Shown one piece after another: positions 32,438 to 38,534 of a DNA stretch of 64,000 nucleotides. Position 1 is the stretch's first letter; every line of letters begins with the position of its first letter. The DNA is from Elsinoe ampelina (taxonomy: Eukaryota). A program made the position numbers and the translations under genes. The notes under the pieces were generated by a model, which saw only the letters and a program-made list of their open reading frames with translations, searched no databases and had not been told where the DNA came from. The stretch covers positions 124,001 through 188,000 of the forward strand of contig ML992504.1 of assembly GCA_010093995.1 (NCBI GenBank), in the 5' to 3' direction.

Positions 32438-33605
32438 ATGAAGGAAGCAATCGTATGCCGGTATATATTCTGTACACATCAGACCGCCACTGACATATAA
32501 CAATCAGGTCAAAAAGGGAACCATCGTGGAGATTGTCGACACGGAGATCCCAAAGCCAGGCCCAAGTCAGATCCTCATCAAGGTCGTCTTTTCCGGCAGC
32601 AACCCCAAAGACTGGAAAATACCAGAATGGATGAACACGGAAAGTAACACCGGCGATGACATTGCTGGTTATGTTCATGAACTCGGGCCTGGTGCAGAAG
32701 ACTATGGCTTTAAAGTTGGCGATCGAGTCGCCGCCTTCCACGAGTATGTTGGGATGTCCCCTCTGCCTTTGCATACCTCTCACACTTTTGACAGGATGCG
32801 TACATCTGGCGGATCTTTCGCCGAGTACGCCATCGCACCGGCACATACCACCTTTCACCTCCCAGCCGCCACCTCTTTCGAGGAGGGCGCCTCCCTACCA
32901 CTGGCCGTTCTCACGGCAGCAGTGGGGCTCTTCAACCGCCTCGGTCTCCCAGAGCCATGGCGCCCAACTACTACCACTACGCCCCTGCTCATCTACGGCG
33001 GAGCTTCAGCAGTTGGTGCTTACGCTATCAAGTACGCATTGCAGAGCAACATCCACCCCATCATCGCCGTTGCTGGACGTGGCATTCCATTTGTCGAGAG
33101 CCTGATCGACAAGTCCAAGGGCGACATTGTCGTCGACTACCGCAACGGTGACGACGCAGTGGTTCAAGGGATCAAGGATGCTCTCAAAGGTCAGAAACTC
33201 GAATACGCCTTCGACGCCGTCAGCGAGAATGGAAGCTTCATCAACATCGGTAAGGTGCTCGAGCCAAAGGGCAAGCTCACCCTCGTACTACCAGGCGACC
33301 ACTCTGGTGTCCCCGAGAGCATTGAGAAGACCTTCACCACTGTCGGGAGCGTCCATCAAGATGCAGCAGTGGAGCAGGCTCCTTCGCCTGTCGGGCACAC
33401 GCCTGATAACAGGGAGGCAGGGTTCGTGCACAGCCAGTGGTTGACTAGGGCGTTGAAGGAGGGCAAGATCAGTGGGCATCCGACTGAGGTCATCCCTGGG
33501 GGGCTCGAGGGGGTGCAGAAGGGCCTGCAGAACTTGAAGGAGGGCAAGGCAAGTGCGGTCAAGTATATCTTCCGCATCGCGGATACCCCTGGAGTAAAGG
33601 CATAG
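32438..33605 (+). CDS. MDR-superfamily quinone oxidoreductase / trans-enoyl-reductase-like protein
   Basis: MKEAI joined to VKKG by intron 32453-32507; GSNPKDWK; GDRVAAFHE joined to M by intron 32744-32794; LLIYGGASAVG NADPH motif; GKASAVKYIFRI. Confidence 0.9.
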
Positions 33606-33669
33606 TGTCACAGTCTAGCATCCAAAATCAATGATAACAGCATGAATTCCCTCATCCATCCACCTCTAC

Positions 33670-34275
33670 TTATCCCTCAAGCGGCGGGAACTTCCTCAAG
33701 AAATGGCTCGGGCATTCGTAGCCAGAAGGCGTTTTCTCCAGATACCTCTGATGATAATCCTCAGCATCCCACCACTGACCCGCCGGCAAAACCTCCGTCA
33801 CCACCTTCCCCTGCTTCCACCACTGCTCCCCGACCAACTTGGTGACTTCCTTTGCCACCTTCTCCTGCTCGGCATCGTGATAAAAAATCCCACTCCTGTA
33901 CTGCGACCCGGTATCCGGGCCCTGCCTGTTCAACGTGGTCGGATCATGCATCTTGTAGAAAAACTCCAGCAACGTCCTGTACGACACCTTGTCCGGATCA
34001 AACGTCATCTGCAGCGCCTCGGCGTGCCCCGTCCTCCCCGTGCACACGGCCCGGTACGACGGGTTCGACGAGTCCCCGCCGATGTAGCCCACGCGGGCGT
34101 CCAGCACGGCGTCGCGCGGGAAGTGGTGCCGGAAGAGGTGCTCGACGCCCCAGAAGCAGCCGGCTGCCACGGTGGCTTTTTGCGCGTTGGGCGGCACTGG
34201 GCCCGTGGATTCGGGGGTGAAGTGCATGGTTGTCGAGGAGAAGGGGCGCATGAGGCGTTGGATGATGTTGGACAT
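33670..34275 (-). CDS. msrA: Peptide methionine-S-sulfoxide reductase MsrA (AUG-initiated form; a CUG-extended form from 34332 is proposed in findings)
   Basis: Catalytic GCFWG, VGYIGG, GHAEA, HDPTTLNRQGPDTGSQYRS, AEDYHQRYL and resolving Cys in GYECPSH; intronless. Confidence 0.97.
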   Translation of the reverse strand: MSNIIQRLMRPFSSTTMHFTPESTGPVPPNAQKATVAAGCFWGVEHLFRHHFPRDAVLDARVGYIGGDSSNPSYRAVCTGRTGHAEALQMTFDPDKVSYRTLLEFFYKMHDPTTLNRQGPDTGSQYRSGIFYHDAEQEKVAKEVTKLVGEQWWKQGKVVTEVLPAGQWWDAEDYHQRYLEKTPSGYECPSHFLRKFPPLEG

Positions 34276-34657
34276 GGTGGGGGCGGTGATGATGGTGAGG
34301 AGGGCGAGGAGGAAGAGTGTGAGGGGCTTCAGGTTGGGTATATGTGTTTGAGGAGAATATCAGGCGTTGGGTGAGCGGGCAGTGAGGTGCTGGACGGAGG
34401 TGTGGCTGTGGGAAAGATGTCAAATAAGATATCTTTGCCCCTCAAATCGGAGCCGCGTCGAGCTGAAGGTTCTTAACTTCTTCGGTGTGCGGCCGCAAAC
34501 GTGATGTCATCATTTTCGGGGAAGCTGTCGTGCTGACACCGACTTCGACTTCGCCACTCAAGGCGGGCAAGGATTTGGAATGCTGGCACTGGTAGTTCAT
34601 TTCATACATTCGTAACACGTCTATGGTATATACATAAACTCCACTTCTTGCGTGATA

Positions 34658-37417
34658 TCAAAACCAGTCACTCGTGCCCATACCCATGCCGCTGTTAGCA
34701 TTGCCAAAATTCGACCATGTTGACCCTGTCCAACCAGGAGCCTGGCCACCTGTTCCAGCTGCTGGATCAACATCCATGCCATACTGTCGTACCATGCTGT
34801 CGAAATTGGCCCAGTCCAGATCCCCGTTGGCATCAAAGGTCATGTTCACATCGCCACCAATCTGACCGGGTTCGGCCATGGGCATTGGTGAGAGGCCAAA
34901 GTTGTTCGGGTTGTCTACACCAAAGGCACTTAAATTGTTGTTGCCTACGTCGACGCCCGCTGTGCCCATGTTTGGCCATGTTGATACCGAGGTGAGAGTA
35001 TTTGGCGTAGGTTGCGGTATTGAGCTTTGGGAGAAGGACCGAGGTGATTCTGTTTGTTGTGTCGATGTCATACCTATCTGATCTTGCATTTGTGGTCCAA
35101 CGGACCCAGGTGATTGAAGCAGCTTGTGGGAATGTGTCATTCTAGATCCAAACGTGGGCTGTGGCGTAGACGTTCCGGATGCTAAACTTCGGTGCAGTGG
35201 TGAGGTCGACGACCTCGATCCCTGTCTGGACATGTAGTCGAGCACCGACCCTGGTAGGATCTGACCAGAAGGGCTCTCACCCGAAGTAGGTCCCGTCTGC
35301 TCAGTCCGACCTTCTTCTTCCAGTGCCTTCAGCCTTGCAGCGACAGCCTTTTGGTGAAGCCGCTCCAAGGGTCGCCAAAGCACACCGGACCTACCAGCTT
35401 CATCCTTCATGTCGCCCCACCTACCATCCCGGATCTTGTTGATGGCAAGCCACGCCCTTTCCACCAGAGGGCCCTTAGTCTTTTTCGTGAGTTCGTTCAG
35501 TATGAAGGCCATGGCGTGCCACTGCATGTACGTCTTGAACAGCCAACCCCACTTCATGGTCCTCGTTTCCGTCTCCAGGAGGAGGGCGTACTCGATGTTT
35601 TCCAGACTAGTGAGGAAGAGCTTATCCTTTATATCCTGAGGCAAAGTACTACCACCATCCTGTCTCTGGTAGGGGTGATACACGATCAGCCACATTTTGG
35701 ACATGATAAGCCGGGCCACCGTGGCGGTGACCCAATACAGTGGTACGGTCATATCGCAGTGCTTCAAATATTTCTCTTCCAGCATATCATGACATTCCTG
35801 GATCCACTTCTCCTTTTCCTCGCGACTGACTGTGGTGTAGAAGTTGTTACAGCCTTTCGGTCCTGGCGGGACGTAGTTGAGGCGGCGGAAAGTATTGGCT
35901 ACCTCAAAGCGGATTAGGCAGAATGACATGTCAGTACAGCCTCGATGTTCGTTTGGGAAGTCCTTCATGCCCGGGTGCATGTCGGCGTCGTTGATGTTGA
36001 GTGGCATCTTTGTGTCGAATGACTGCTCGACTATGGTAGGATCACAGCCATGATCCTCCGAAGCGCGCACGTCTAGGATGCATATCTGCCACCATAGACG
36101 TCTACGCATCTCGACTTCGAAAGGCGGTAATCCAAAGTGTGTTCCATCGCGGTGAATGCCAACAGTTTGACTCATGCGTACTAGGAGCCCAGTCAGGGTC
36201 CAAATCACCCGAGCATCGCTGTTGCGACGTAGACACATCAGGAATATGACAAAAGCTTGTAAGATGACAAGCTCCTCCGCCGTTAGGAAGTTGGCCCGCG
36301 CGAGTGCCTGTTCAACTGCGAAGCGATATCTCGAAAGTAACACAGATCGATCCTCGCCTAGCTTGGATAAACATTCTTCTGGCGACAGGCTGGTAGTTGC
36401 TCCATAGTAGATTGCGAACAATAGTGCCTCAAAGCCCTTCGATAGATTGGCAAGGTGAGACGCGGAGGTCAGTATGGTGGGAGTGATGCTGGGAATATGC
36501 AGGACCTTGACCAATGGATCGACCCTGTCTTTATAGATTGACCAGTATGTTTCGATCTGCGCAGGTATCGGATGCAGAGCTAGCATATCGACGCTCTGTG
36601 AACTGAAGCTGAACATCCAACCCTGGTGGTGTCCCGGTACATGGGTATGCGATCCAGGCGAGGCGTCATCCTCATCATCCGACTCTTCGTTCAGGATGCC
36701 TTTGAGATCTTCCACCTCATTACTGAGACTTGCCCAGAAGGAGGTATTGACATAGCGGGACCGACCTTCACTGACGACTAAGCGGCCAAACCGATGCTCC
36801 AGCTGCTTGGGATTTCTGGTACCCTCGGGCCCCTCATCTCGAGACAAGGTGTAGTCCTGACTGCGTCTCGTCGGGTGCTCGGAATGCGGCGAGCTACCTG
36901 TACTGTGATCCTCATGTATCCTAGCATCTTTGGCTGTGTGTTCCCCTGATTGTCCTCCGGAAGTGTCAACGTCGACCCCCAAACCCTTGACGACACCTTC
37001 CAAGCGCCTCAGTCGCTCGAGTAGCTCGCTGTCTCTACCATCAGTATGCTTGCGTGGTCGCCGCGGAGCTCGTCCAGGTGTGGGAAAGACACAGTCGATG
37101 TGTGCCCTGACGCAGTTGGCGCATGGATGTGACTTGTCACACTTGACCTTTCTACGGCGACAAGTGACGCAAGAGCGGGGATTAAGAACGCGTCCATGGG
37201 AGTCTACCACGGGGGCGGGTGGCTGAGACGTCGAGTTGGACCTATTTGGAGGAGGTGTGTTCGTCTTATGAGATTGAGATCCGTCTTGTACACCCAGGGC
37301 TTGCAGCGAAGCACGATGCGATGCCTCGGGAGTAGACGTGTTCGTGACGCCGTTTGTACCTGAGTGGGGGAGCGGATCAGGTCCGTTGAAGTCGAAAGGC
37401 GCCGAAGTATCAGACAT
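34658..37417 (-). CDS. Zn(II)2Cys6 transcription factor with fungal TF middle-homology domain
   Basis: CVTCRRRKVKCDKSHPCANCVRAHIDC; VDPLVKVLHIP; GIHRDG...EMRRRLWWQICILD; DTKMPLNIND. Most likely AUG at 37417 (MSDTS); the ORF track extends to a GTG at 37477. Confidence 0.93.
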   Translation of the reverse strand: MSDTSAPFDFNGPDPLPHSGTNGVTNTSTPEASHRASLQALGVQDGSQSHKTNTPPPNRSNSTSQPPAPVVDSHGRVLNPRSCVTCRRRKVKCDKSHPCANCVRAHIDCVFPTPGRAPRRPRKHTDGRDSELLERLRRLEGVVKGLGVDVDTSGGQSGEHTAKDARIHEDHSTGSSPHSEHPTRRSQDYTLSRDEGPEGTRNPKQLEHRFGRLVVSEGRSRYVNTSFWASLSNEVEDLKGILNEESDDEDDASPGSHTHVPGHHQGWMFSFSSQSVDMLALHPIPAQIETYWSIYKDRVDPLVKVLHIPSITPTILTSASHLANLSKGFEALLFAIYYGATTSLSPEECLSKLGEDRSVLLSRYRFAVEQALARANFLTAEELVILQAFVIFLMCLRRNSDARVIWTLTGLLVRMSQTVGIHRDGTHFGLPPFEVEMRRRLWWQICILDVRASEDHGCDPTIVEQSFDTKMPLNINDADMHPGMKDFPNEHRGCTDMSFCLIRFEVANTFRRLNYVPPGPKGCNNFYTTVSREEKEKWIQECHDMLEEKYLKHCDMTVPLYWVTATVARLIMSKMWLIVYHPYQRQDGGSTLPQDIKDKLFLTSLENIEYALLLETETRTMKWGWLFKTYMQWHAMAFILNELTKKTKGPLVERAWLAINKIRDGRWGDMKDEAGRSGVLWRPLERLHQKAVAARLKALEEEGRTEQTGPTSGESPSGQILPGSVLDYMSRQGSRSSTSPLHRSLASGTSTPQPTFGSRMTHSHKLLQSPGSVGPQMQDQIGMTSTQQTESPRSFSQSSIPQPTPNTLTSVSTWPNMGTAGVDVGNNNLSAFGVDNPNNFGLSPMPMAEPGQIGGDVNMTFDANGDLDWANFDSMVRQYGMDVDPAAGTGGQAPGWTGSTWSNFGNANSGMGMGTSDWF

Positions 37418-38534
37418 GATGGTGAAATTGACAGAGCTGTCGTCGCCGCGGTGGATGCTTGTTCCACTCGCGGCCACACCGGCTCACTTGTACATTCTTC
37501 AGTTGCAGGAAGATGAGAAGGAAGACTTTGGTAAGTGTCAGAGGCTTTCGAGATTGCAACGGCCGCAACACGACCCTGACCTTGCGAACAGGTTCTGACA
37601 ACGGATCTTGCCGCACGTAAAGGTTCGCACGCGCAAAAGAATCTTGGAGATAGAAAGTGATTTGCTGTCAGCGCATGAGTCTTTTTTAGCCAGATCTGCA
37701 AGGCCCTAGGACGGACCTTCCTGGTTGCTGCGGGGCATCATCGTGAAGCAGCAGAGAACCGAACAGTTCCAGATCCACCTTAAGTTACCGTGTGTACATT
37801 GCCAATCCAGGGACGACGCTCGCTGCCATCTGCAATGCTCGAGATATGGCTATTGTCTTGCAATCGACCTTTCCAAAGAGAAAGTCTAGCAATCGGAGTG
37901 ACCTGTGAGCACTTGAGCGTGGGACATGCCGCTAGAAAGGCTAGAAGGCCACTAAGGACAGTAGGCCTGAATGCCACTGTACTGGTGGGGTCAGTCCTGT
38001 TGCGAAAAGTACCCTTGGTAGTCGTCGGGGAAGGGAATATATGGACATGCCTTGAGAAGAAATAGCGATCGAAAGCAAATAGTCAGCATGCTTCGTGCTA
38101 TCCTTGCGACAAAGGGCCCGGCTCGGTGCAATCTCCCCTTCTGATCGTCCTGTCAATCCAGCCTGGATTGATCTGCATCATCTGTACCAGTTGGAACTCA
38201 TTGCGACGTTGGTCTACTGTACCTCTCAGTGCTTTCCCCGCGTACCGAACCCTGACAACGCACATTTCACCTTGCTCCAACTCTTCCCTTTGTGCCAGCC
38301 TTACAGCGTGACATTTCTAATTCGATCTGGTTTGGACGTTGCACGCGAGCAGATGTCGACACAAGACTGCTGCAGAGCTCGATGAGAGTGAGCAATGACT
38401 GTGGACTGGAGACTTGACCCTTGAACATCAGCTACCGCCAGGGGACGCTATTCTCAACCACCAGAGCTCGCCAGAGACAGTTTGGTTTCGAGCAGCTTCT
38501 TGGTGGAGGGCTGTATCCATTGCGACCATTCAGT

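Follow-up and report, generated by a model that had tools for sequence, protein, structure and literature searches.

Non-AUG start codons that add targeting signals to proteins are already known, and a close fungal case is that of 6-phosphogluconate dehydrogenase, a housekeeping enzyme with a cryptic targeting signal in its annotated 5′ untranslated region that is conserved across species and read from near-cognate codons, so that a single mRNA supplies two compartments (Kremp et al. 2020, PMC7214817). Here, we analyse msrA, a gene on the minus strand of a 64,000-nucleotide stretch of Elsinoe ampelina DNA (assembly GCA_010093995.1, contig ML992504.1, positions 124,001 to 188,000; ‘the window’), which very probably carries a real coding extension initiated at a CUG codon. 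The two differ in their signals: that of 6-phosphogluconate dehydrogenase is a peroxisomal targeting signal of type 2 (PTS2) started at AGG AUU, whereas that of msrA would be a CUG-started hydrophobic segment atop a mitochondrial-type presequence.

A second counterpart, cpc-1 of Pezizomycotina (Ivanov et al. 2017, PMC5487733), belongs to the same fungal group and resembles msrA in three respects: a CUG or ACG is conserved, with A at −3 and an otherwise near-optimal context; the frame has no stop as far as the main AUG; and conservation follows the main frame. However, the cpc-1 extensions span about 180 residues, bypass an inhibitory upstream open reading frame (ORF) and hold no targeting signal. 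Their translation was shown in vitro and by ribosome profiling, and the dehydrogenase start was shown experimentally in Ustilago, whereas the msrA extension is supported by sequence comparison. MsrA is not mentioned in the main text of the cpc-1 paper.

Animal Msr enzymes also use alternative N termini, to give mitochondrial, cytosolic or nuclear, and endoplasmic reticulum (ER) forms, the last in human MsrB3 (Kim and Gladyshev 2006, PMC1431549). They do so through alternative first exons, and the available text of that study describes neither a non-AUG start nor an ER form of MsrA. The gene of the window, by contrast, is intronless, and in the model proposed below the choice would fall to the scanning ribosome. 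A second AUG is used in mouse MsrA, and PTEN-Long is a CUG-started mammalian proteoform. The neuronal pentraxin receptor likewise has a CUG-initiated secreted or membrane proteoform in mammals (10.1101/2024.02.16.580719). As proposed for msrA, a CUG 5′ of the AUG alters a secretion or membrane signal in these mammalian proteins, but they are unrelated animal proteins without a nested mitochondrial presequence.

Among 709 annotated fungal MsrAs, 44% were predicted to be mitochondrial and 6%, mostly from Aspergillus and Penicillium, to be secreted, the latter being treated as rarities (Hage et al. 2021 preprint, 10.1101/2021.02.26.433065), and the MsrA-like protein RL4_JR_9102 of Raffaelea lauricola was listed as a candidate secreted effector (PMC7441637). 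Compared by their descriptions only, these predicted-secreted proteins probably carry the same extension with an AUG at its start, as do the Xylariales models described below; the available texts of both reports note no conserved non-AUG counterpart in species annotated from the downstream AUG. A later preprint held that Msrs are most likely not secreted and that secreted fungal proteins cannot be repaired. In a literature search that left subscription journals largely outside, we met no account of fungal MsrA with a hidden leader, whether non-AUG-started or conserved; the leader thus appears to be new and, as judged from its phylogenetic spread, unusually well supported.

The protein encoded in the window is a plain MsrA. 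Its match to PF01625 scores 209.1 bits (cut-off 23.7, E value 5.2e-62) over profile positions 1–152 of 153, and the catalytic cysteine of the GCFWG motif (G58-C59-F60-W61-G62 of protein P0001, whose residues are numbered from the CTG) is invariant in 21 of 21 aligned sequences. Its best database match, the MsrA of Elsinoe fawcettii, is a 201-residue model with 87% identity that starts at the equivalent of the ATG at 34275. On the minus strand, the frame runs from stop to stop over 33670–34359, and the 28 codons 5′ of this first ATG stay open as far as a TGA at 34362–34360. Among them is a CTG at 34332–34330 in the context cccaacCTGaag, with A at −3 and C at −4, and the 18 codons 3′ of it translate to the Leu/Ile-rich KPLTLFLLALLTIITAPT. 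As long as the leader is unspliced, this TGA excludes an AUG start further upstream for the extension.

The initial annotation, made from the sequence of the window, had proposed a hidden CUG-initiated signal peptide that AUG-based annotation misses. The coordinates of the frame, the TGA, the CTG and both ATGs all hold, and a signal peptide-like extension of this kind now finds strong support: orthologues keep its frame, its hydrophobicity, its start codon and the Kozak context, some lineages have an AUG at the same place, and contigs contain the CTG. Two of the refuting conditions named in that annotation, on the reach of transcripts and on the state of orthologous leaders, do not speak against it. 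On the comparisons that follow, the extension, its start codon and its context are conserved as coding sequence, and transcript-like contigs contain the extension.

For these comparisons, a metagenome scan gave 80 loci, of which 37 were of fungal type (L001–L033, L035, L042, L052 and L062) and 43 were of bacterial type or without the fungal N terminus. After leaving out L004 (cut four codons 5′ of the ATG), L016 (identical to L015), L033 (identical to L032) and L025 (presequence unrecognisable), 33 metagenome loci and the window made up a set of 34 leaders. Breadth across fungal classes is read from named database proteins. We called a leader ‘open and hydrophobic’ if the 20 codons 5′ of the canonical ATG were stop-free and their best 11-residue Kyte–Doolittle mean was at least 2.0. 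The coding frame was stop-free over these codons in 29 of the 34 leaders, and both open and hydrophobic in 27, compared with 1 of 34 in each of the other two frames. Far from being broken by stops or frameshifts, the orthologous leaders are thus mostly open and hydrophobic in frame.

Database proteins show the same stretch. Of the 120 best homologues, 13 have at least 221 residues, the additional length is N-terminal in 12 of these, and all 12 have a hydrophobic stretch that leads straight into the canonical Met. Aligned without a gap, the model from Aureobasidium pullulans agrees with the extension of the window at 10 of 18 positions (counted by eye).

Base composition calls for caution here, as a C-rich, G-poor tract at about 34440–34170 leaves two of three frames stop-free, and one shifted frame is stop-free in 30 of the 34 leaders. 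A frame that such a tract opens by its composition is little proof in itself, and the same observations favour the view that nothing is translated 5′ of the AUG and that a C/T-rich leader only mimics Leu and Ile codons. We consider this very improbable, and the comparative data already contradict it: hydrophobicity is specific to the coding frame, a CTGAAG motif stands in frame at all 12 of its occurrences in the leaders, conservation drops at the CTG, the extensions vary in length between lineages yet stay in frame, and AUG-started orthologues exist. Taken together across the orthologues, frame-specific hydrophobicity and a conserved in-frame CTG go far beyond chance. Within the window, the third base is C in 16 of the 18 codons after the CTG, compared with 2 of the 9 that separate the CTG from the TGA. 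The C-ending codons had been described as resembling those of the coding sequence (CDS); this stands for the extension when set against the codons upstream, but it is no more than partly right for the CDS as a whole, whose 201 codons end in G (96), C (70), T (23) or A (12) and are rich in C at third positions only over the first 30 (19 of 30).

We tabulated in-frame CTG, GTG, TTG, ACG and ATG codons for 28 leaders and could assign a start in 24, each chosen by eye as the codon just 5′ of the hydrophobic core. The assigned start is CTG in 20, ACG in 3 and GTG in 1, the last being L005. Its context is A at −3 in 23, C at −4 in 19 and A at −2 in 19; the following codon is AAG or AAA (Lys) in the majority, and all 24 leaders are open from start codon to AUG. 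Of the 127 Leu codons that lie within the extensions, only 9 are CTG while 87 are CTC, so the CTG at the start is not ordinary codon usage. As the starts had been picked by eye, a blind motif count served as control: within 150 nt 5′ of the 34 ATGs, CTGAAG occurs 12 times and always in frame, and A-N-N-CTG occurs 23 times in frame compared with 5 and 1 in the other frames.

The window and L007, L009, L014, L023, L029, L052 and L062 each have an in-frame stop 4–14 codons 5′ of the CTG, which leaves no AUG that could serve as start in those leaders. Across ten related pairs, nucleotide identity is 0.38–0.58 in the 60 nt 5′ of the start codon, 0.54–0.84 in the extension and 0.68–0.95 in the first 60 nt of the CDS, and conservation, as these pairs indicate, ends at the start codon. 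The pooled ratio of nonsynonymous to synonymous differences (pN/pS) is 0.65 in frame compared with 1.46 in a shifted frame, a weak result from a small sample (six loci with equal-length extensions, 15 codons) that fits the loose constraint typical of hydrophobic signals. Separately, a metagenome gene call, P0097, begins with Val-Lys directly before the hydrophobic stretch; its prokaryote-style caller chose GTG AAG where CTG AAG stands in most fungi.

Contigs from four public runs of three studies (X1, X2, X3 and X15), which are not recorded as RNA, were mapped onto 33600–34750. Runs X2, X3 and X15 each gave one contig of 760–820 nt, from 33628 to 34406, 34386 and 34444, respectively, and the X1 contig covers 33600 to 34423, where it ends, with a word depth of 505 over msrA, 3.7 between genes and 82 over the upstream gene. 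Gene-sized contigs, a common 3′ end and a hundred-fold contrast in depth make it likely that these contigs derive from RNA. They extend 54–112 nt 5′ of the CTG, and thus, for runs of this kind, place the codon inside the covered region and not upstream of it. No joint that would mark an intron appears in the contigs of the four runs over msrA and its leader, no ATG occurs in any frame in the leader at 34444–34276, and the CTG at 34332 is its sole in-frame CTG, GTG, TTG or ACG.

These contigs also bear on whether the extension is part of a longer protein whose AUG lies in a spliced upstream exon, as might be suggested by models from Aureobasidium, Stemphylium and Gallowayella that start at far-upstream AUGs and read through the extension. 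We give this almost no credence, as the TGA of the window lies 10 codons 5′ of the CTG in contigs without joints, the spliced loci L007 and L009 have in-frame stops 5′ of the CTG, and the sequence 5′ of the CTG is not conserved. An upstream splice acceptor in the window was considered and rejected, as the contigs have no joints and the TGA lies downstream of the candidate sites seen by eye.

Spliced orthologues come from the metagenome. Genomic msrA loci have an intron within the conserved T-G-H-A-E stretch, and L005, L006, L007, L009 and L010 are without the intron that their relatives carry, which marks them as spliced, cDNA-like contigs. The start site lies inside all five, with at least 36–54 nt 5′ of it, and none of the five has an out-of-frame upstream ATG. 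In L010 and L012, an in-frame ATG stands 5′ of the hydrophobic stretch. A profile search found AUG-started NCBI models in five species of Hypoxylon, in Xylaria, Poronia, Anthostomella, Apiospora, Whalleya and several unnamed Xylariaceae, and in Salinomyces, all with a Met, then the same hydrophobic stretch, then the canonical Met. That some lineages have exchanged the near-cognate start for AUG is a classical sign of a translated extension, here read from gene models and loci. A search with residues 1–60 of P0092 returned only itself and one relative (2 of 10 candidates) and reached no Aspergillus or Penicillium, and the best scores of an ESM Atlas search with residues 1–45 were at noise level (0.80).

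Several observations on these loci stand apart. Locus L011 is a spliced, cDNA-like orthologue without the extension, from a lineage in which the hidden leader was lost or never existed. Loci L017 (85–130) and L018 (16–75) have a short, weakly hydrophobic in-frame stretch with an upstream ATG start in place of the CTG-started leader; these may be the Aspergillus/Penicillium-type N termini that predictors call secreted. The intron keeps its one conserved place, in T-G-H-A-E, in L002, L003, L012, L014, L015, L026, L028–L032, L035, L042 and L052, it is read through in frame in L013, L014 and L015, and the intronless state of the window gene and L001 points to intron loss in this lineage. P0006 and P0037 are fungal-type MsrAs (68–77% identity) filed under plants, namely under Corymbia citriodora, on a 1419-nt contig, and Carpinus fangiana, and probably entered the plant assemblies from fungal contaminants or endophytes.

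The model that we propose joins three nested starts. The msrA mRNA would begin about 55–110 nt 5′ of the CUG at 34332, which has the strong fungal start context CAAC CUG A, and a minority of scanning ribosomes would initiate there to make a form 19 residues longer. Like a cleavable ER signal peptide, the additional segment would consist of Met-Lys, a Leu/Ile-rich core of about 12–14 residues and an end of small residues, and it would stand directly ahead of the presequence of the ordinary form. Most ribosomes would pass the CUG and start at the first AUG (34275), giving a form predicted to be mitochondrial with a short basic presequence that ends in R-P-F-S, and some may reach the AUG at 34227 and make a signal-free form, such that one intronless mRNA would give nested N termini.

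Of the two AUG forms, the first has no Asp or Glu in its first 16 residues, R-P-F-S included. The R-3 cleavage motif is R-x-(F/Y/L) followed by S or A in a basic, acid-free N terminus. The initial annotation had read such a motif from the window, and among homologues R-x-[FLMIY]-[STAN] is found in 151 of 166 proteins, a near-universal presequence motif that fits a mitochondrial form. Its cytosolic form from Met17 fares less well: the in-frame AUG at 34227 is present in the window, and a signal-free form from it is plausible in this lineage, but a second Met occurs within nine residues after the motif in only 76 of the 151 motif-bearing proteins and in 19 of 27 DNA sequences (usually behind ACC or ACA; absent in 7, with 1 unscorable), so such a form is not a general rule. 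A near-cognate Leu codon in place of the second Met was tried as a candidate and rejected, as the Leu codons found there are CTT, CTC or CTA, which do not start translation.

What the extension does is less settled than its coding nature. We favour a cleavable ER signal peptide over an uncleaved anchor, and the whole reading, nested starts and ER signal-peptide role included, has in our judgement about an even chance of being right. A eukaryotic ER signal peptide has a short basic n-region, an h-region of about 7–15 hydrophobic residues and a polar c-region with small residues at −3 and −1. In 22 of 24 extensions, net positive charge precedes the hydrophobic stretch; over all 24, the best 12-residue hydrophobicity has a median of 2.58 (range 1.84–3.30), and the Leu/Ile/Val-rich core lies at the extreme N terminus with Lys after the start. 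The translations join the canonical protein through a short polar or small-residue stretch, or through Met-Ala in other clades. The secretion calls on annotated fungal MsrAs cited above point in the same direction. From the alignment of 21 sequences, AlphaFold2 predicted a helix at residues 3–15, a break at 16–20, a separate short helix at 21–27 and the catalytic domain from residue 51, with predicted local distance difference test (pLDDT) scores of only 73, 61, 55 and 40 over the first four ten-residue blocks.

The strongest competitor, which we rate as rather unlikely, is that the CUG-initiated extension acts as an uncleaved N-terminal signal anchor. A single membrane span of about 20 residues would then arise from the extension together with the first 5–10 residues of the AUG form, which are uncharged, with the R-x-x-R of the presequence as its positive flank, and MsrA would be tethered to the mitochondrial outer membrane, in the manner of Tom20, Tom70 or OM45, or to the ER, with its catalytic domain in the cytosol near thioredoxin. 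Outer-membrane signal anchors follow a rule of a moderately hydrophobic span of about 20 residues whose C-terminal flank is net positive over five residues. In line with it, the uncharged stretch passes the canonical Met by 5–11 residues in 23 of 24 extensions and is 18–30 residues long (median 20.5), two Lys/Arg follow within five residues in 21 of 24, and the AUG-started Xylariales forms have long polar N termini followed by an Ala/Ile-rich, moderately hydrophobic stretch; an enzyme facing the cytosol would also keep access to its reductant, in accord with established MsrA biochemistry. However, the Leu-rich cores of Dothideomycetes are strongly hydrophobic (best 12-residue mean up to 3.3), which by the same rule favours the signal recognition particle and the ER, many lineages have a polar or Pro-containing break in the span immediately ahead of the canonical Met, and AlphaFold2 gives two helices and a break in place of one long helix, albeit at the low confidence given above.

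An improbable further option is that the extension is translated but mainly regulatory, with CUG initiation or the nascent peptide tuning the supply of AUG-started protein, or with the long product being degraded. Selection that is only moderate (pN/pS 0.65) would suit this, as would the conserved near-cognate starts with regulatory roles described for Pezizomycotina cpc-1 (PMC5487733). Yet the conserved trait is hydrophobicity with flanking positive charge and not a specific peptide, which is the signature of a targeting or membrane segment, and several lineages have an AUG instead, which would make the long form abundant, something that a mere throttle should not tolerate.

Several points weigh against a CUG-started ER signal peptide, and the by-eye choice of start codons in the 24 leaders is one of them. 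Seven of the 34 leaders are not both stop-free and hydrophobic over 20 codons: L011 has a TAG immediately 5′ of its ATG, L017, L018, L021, L022 and L024 are divergent misses, and L020 has a hydrophobic extension of 19 codons that meets a stop at codon 20, with no CTG, GTG, TTG, ACG or ATG 5′ of its hydrophobic core. The contigs cannot place the transcription start (X2, X3 and X15 have no cover from their ends to about 34700, which is not evidence for one), and there may be a second start 3′ of the CTG. The division of the extension into n-, h- and c-regions follows a rule of thumb, and the length of the uncharged stretch and its positively charged flank fit a transmembrane signal anchor equally well. 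The C terminus of the protein has no ER retention motif. MsrA requires a thiol reductant, and we know of none for MsrA in the ER lumen or outside the cell. We infer translation itself, the share of ribosomes at each start, ER entry, cleavage and all destinations. One lead for an ER reductant, and nothing more, is a Neurospora preprint in which MsrA (NCU10029) is among the thioredoxin-bound proteins and the thioredoxin TRX1 is predicted to be cytoplasmic and/or ER-located (10.1101/2025.04.24.650474).

Table 1. Elements of the msrA locus in the window, with the evidence for each.
Feature	Position	Strand	Evidence or remark
5′ leader upstream of CTG	34333..34444	-	ATG-free in every frame; contigs of four runs end inside
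In-frame TGA	34360..34362	-	Frame translation; contigs without joints
Putative CUG start site, CAAC CTG AAG	34327..34336	-	Conserved core of the feature; C at −4, A at −3 and −2, Lys codon next
Predicted extension of 19 codons (CUG, Lys, hydrophobic core, small-residue end)	34276..34332	-	Translation, orthologue leaders, AlphaFold2
First AUG, the annotated start, caccATGt	34273..34275	-	Orthologue models of about 200 amino acids begin at the equivalent site
Presequence-like N terminus of the AUG form, acid-free, ending R-P-F-S (34248-34237)	34237..34275	-	Translation; orthologue motif count
Second in-frame AUG (Met17, acaaccATGc), 5′ of the catalytic domain	34225..34227	-	Kept in part of the orthologues only
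PMSR (MsrA) catalytic domain, GCFWG at 34147-34161	33715..34179	-	PF01625 match, residues 52-206 of P0001
Stop codon TAA	33670..33672	-	Frame reading
Short 3′ end	33628..33669	-	Shared contig end at 33628 in three runs from two studies

Two neighbouring genes crowd the locus. A convergent ORF on the plus strand (32442–33605), medium-chain dehydrogenase/reductase-like by eye, has its stop 23 nt from 33628, where three msrA contigs end, and the X1 contig spans both genes; together, these ends and the contig running through both indicate that the 3′ ends of msrA and this ORF abut or overlap. Upstream, on the minus strand, a long ORF (34658–37483) has a Zn2Cys6-type cysteine motif near its N terminus, again by eye, and only about 215 nt separate its stop from 34444, the outermost end of the msrA contigs, a gap so small that the msrA promoter must be very short or overlap the 3′ end of the upstream gene.

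No enzyme other than MsrA is known to repair protein methionine oxidised to its S form, and these fungi encode it in one gene, whose product current accounts assign to cytosol and mitochondria. A leader conserved across Dothideomycetes, Sordariomycetes, lichen-forming and other ascomycetes implies a third, membrane or secretory form that selection would have long kept, and part of the enzyme probably goes to the membrane or the secretory pathway, a destination that annotation misses in most genomes along with the extension itself. For the ER or secretory destination proposed by the initial annotation, the comparisons leave a plausible case, whereas its extracellular repair under a host burst of reactive oxygen is speculation; since saprobes and lichen fungi have kept the feature too, it is no adaptation of pathogens. 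A bolder claim, which we put forward tentatively and hold possible though short of an even chance, is that in filamentous ascomycetes as a group a conserved CUG start directs some of the product of their one MsrA gene to the secretory pathway, with three nested starts on the same intronless mRNA serving three compartments. If true, the ER lumen, the cell wall or the medium would have methionine-sulfoxide repair or, if no reductant is present, a methionine-oxidising activity, where the field assumes there to be none. Few fungal genes are known in which a non-AUG start conceals a targeting signal, and the extension adds a well-supported case to them. Through it, protein repair outside the cytosol is opened to direct tests in fungi, among them plant pathogens that produce reactive oxygen or are exposed to it.

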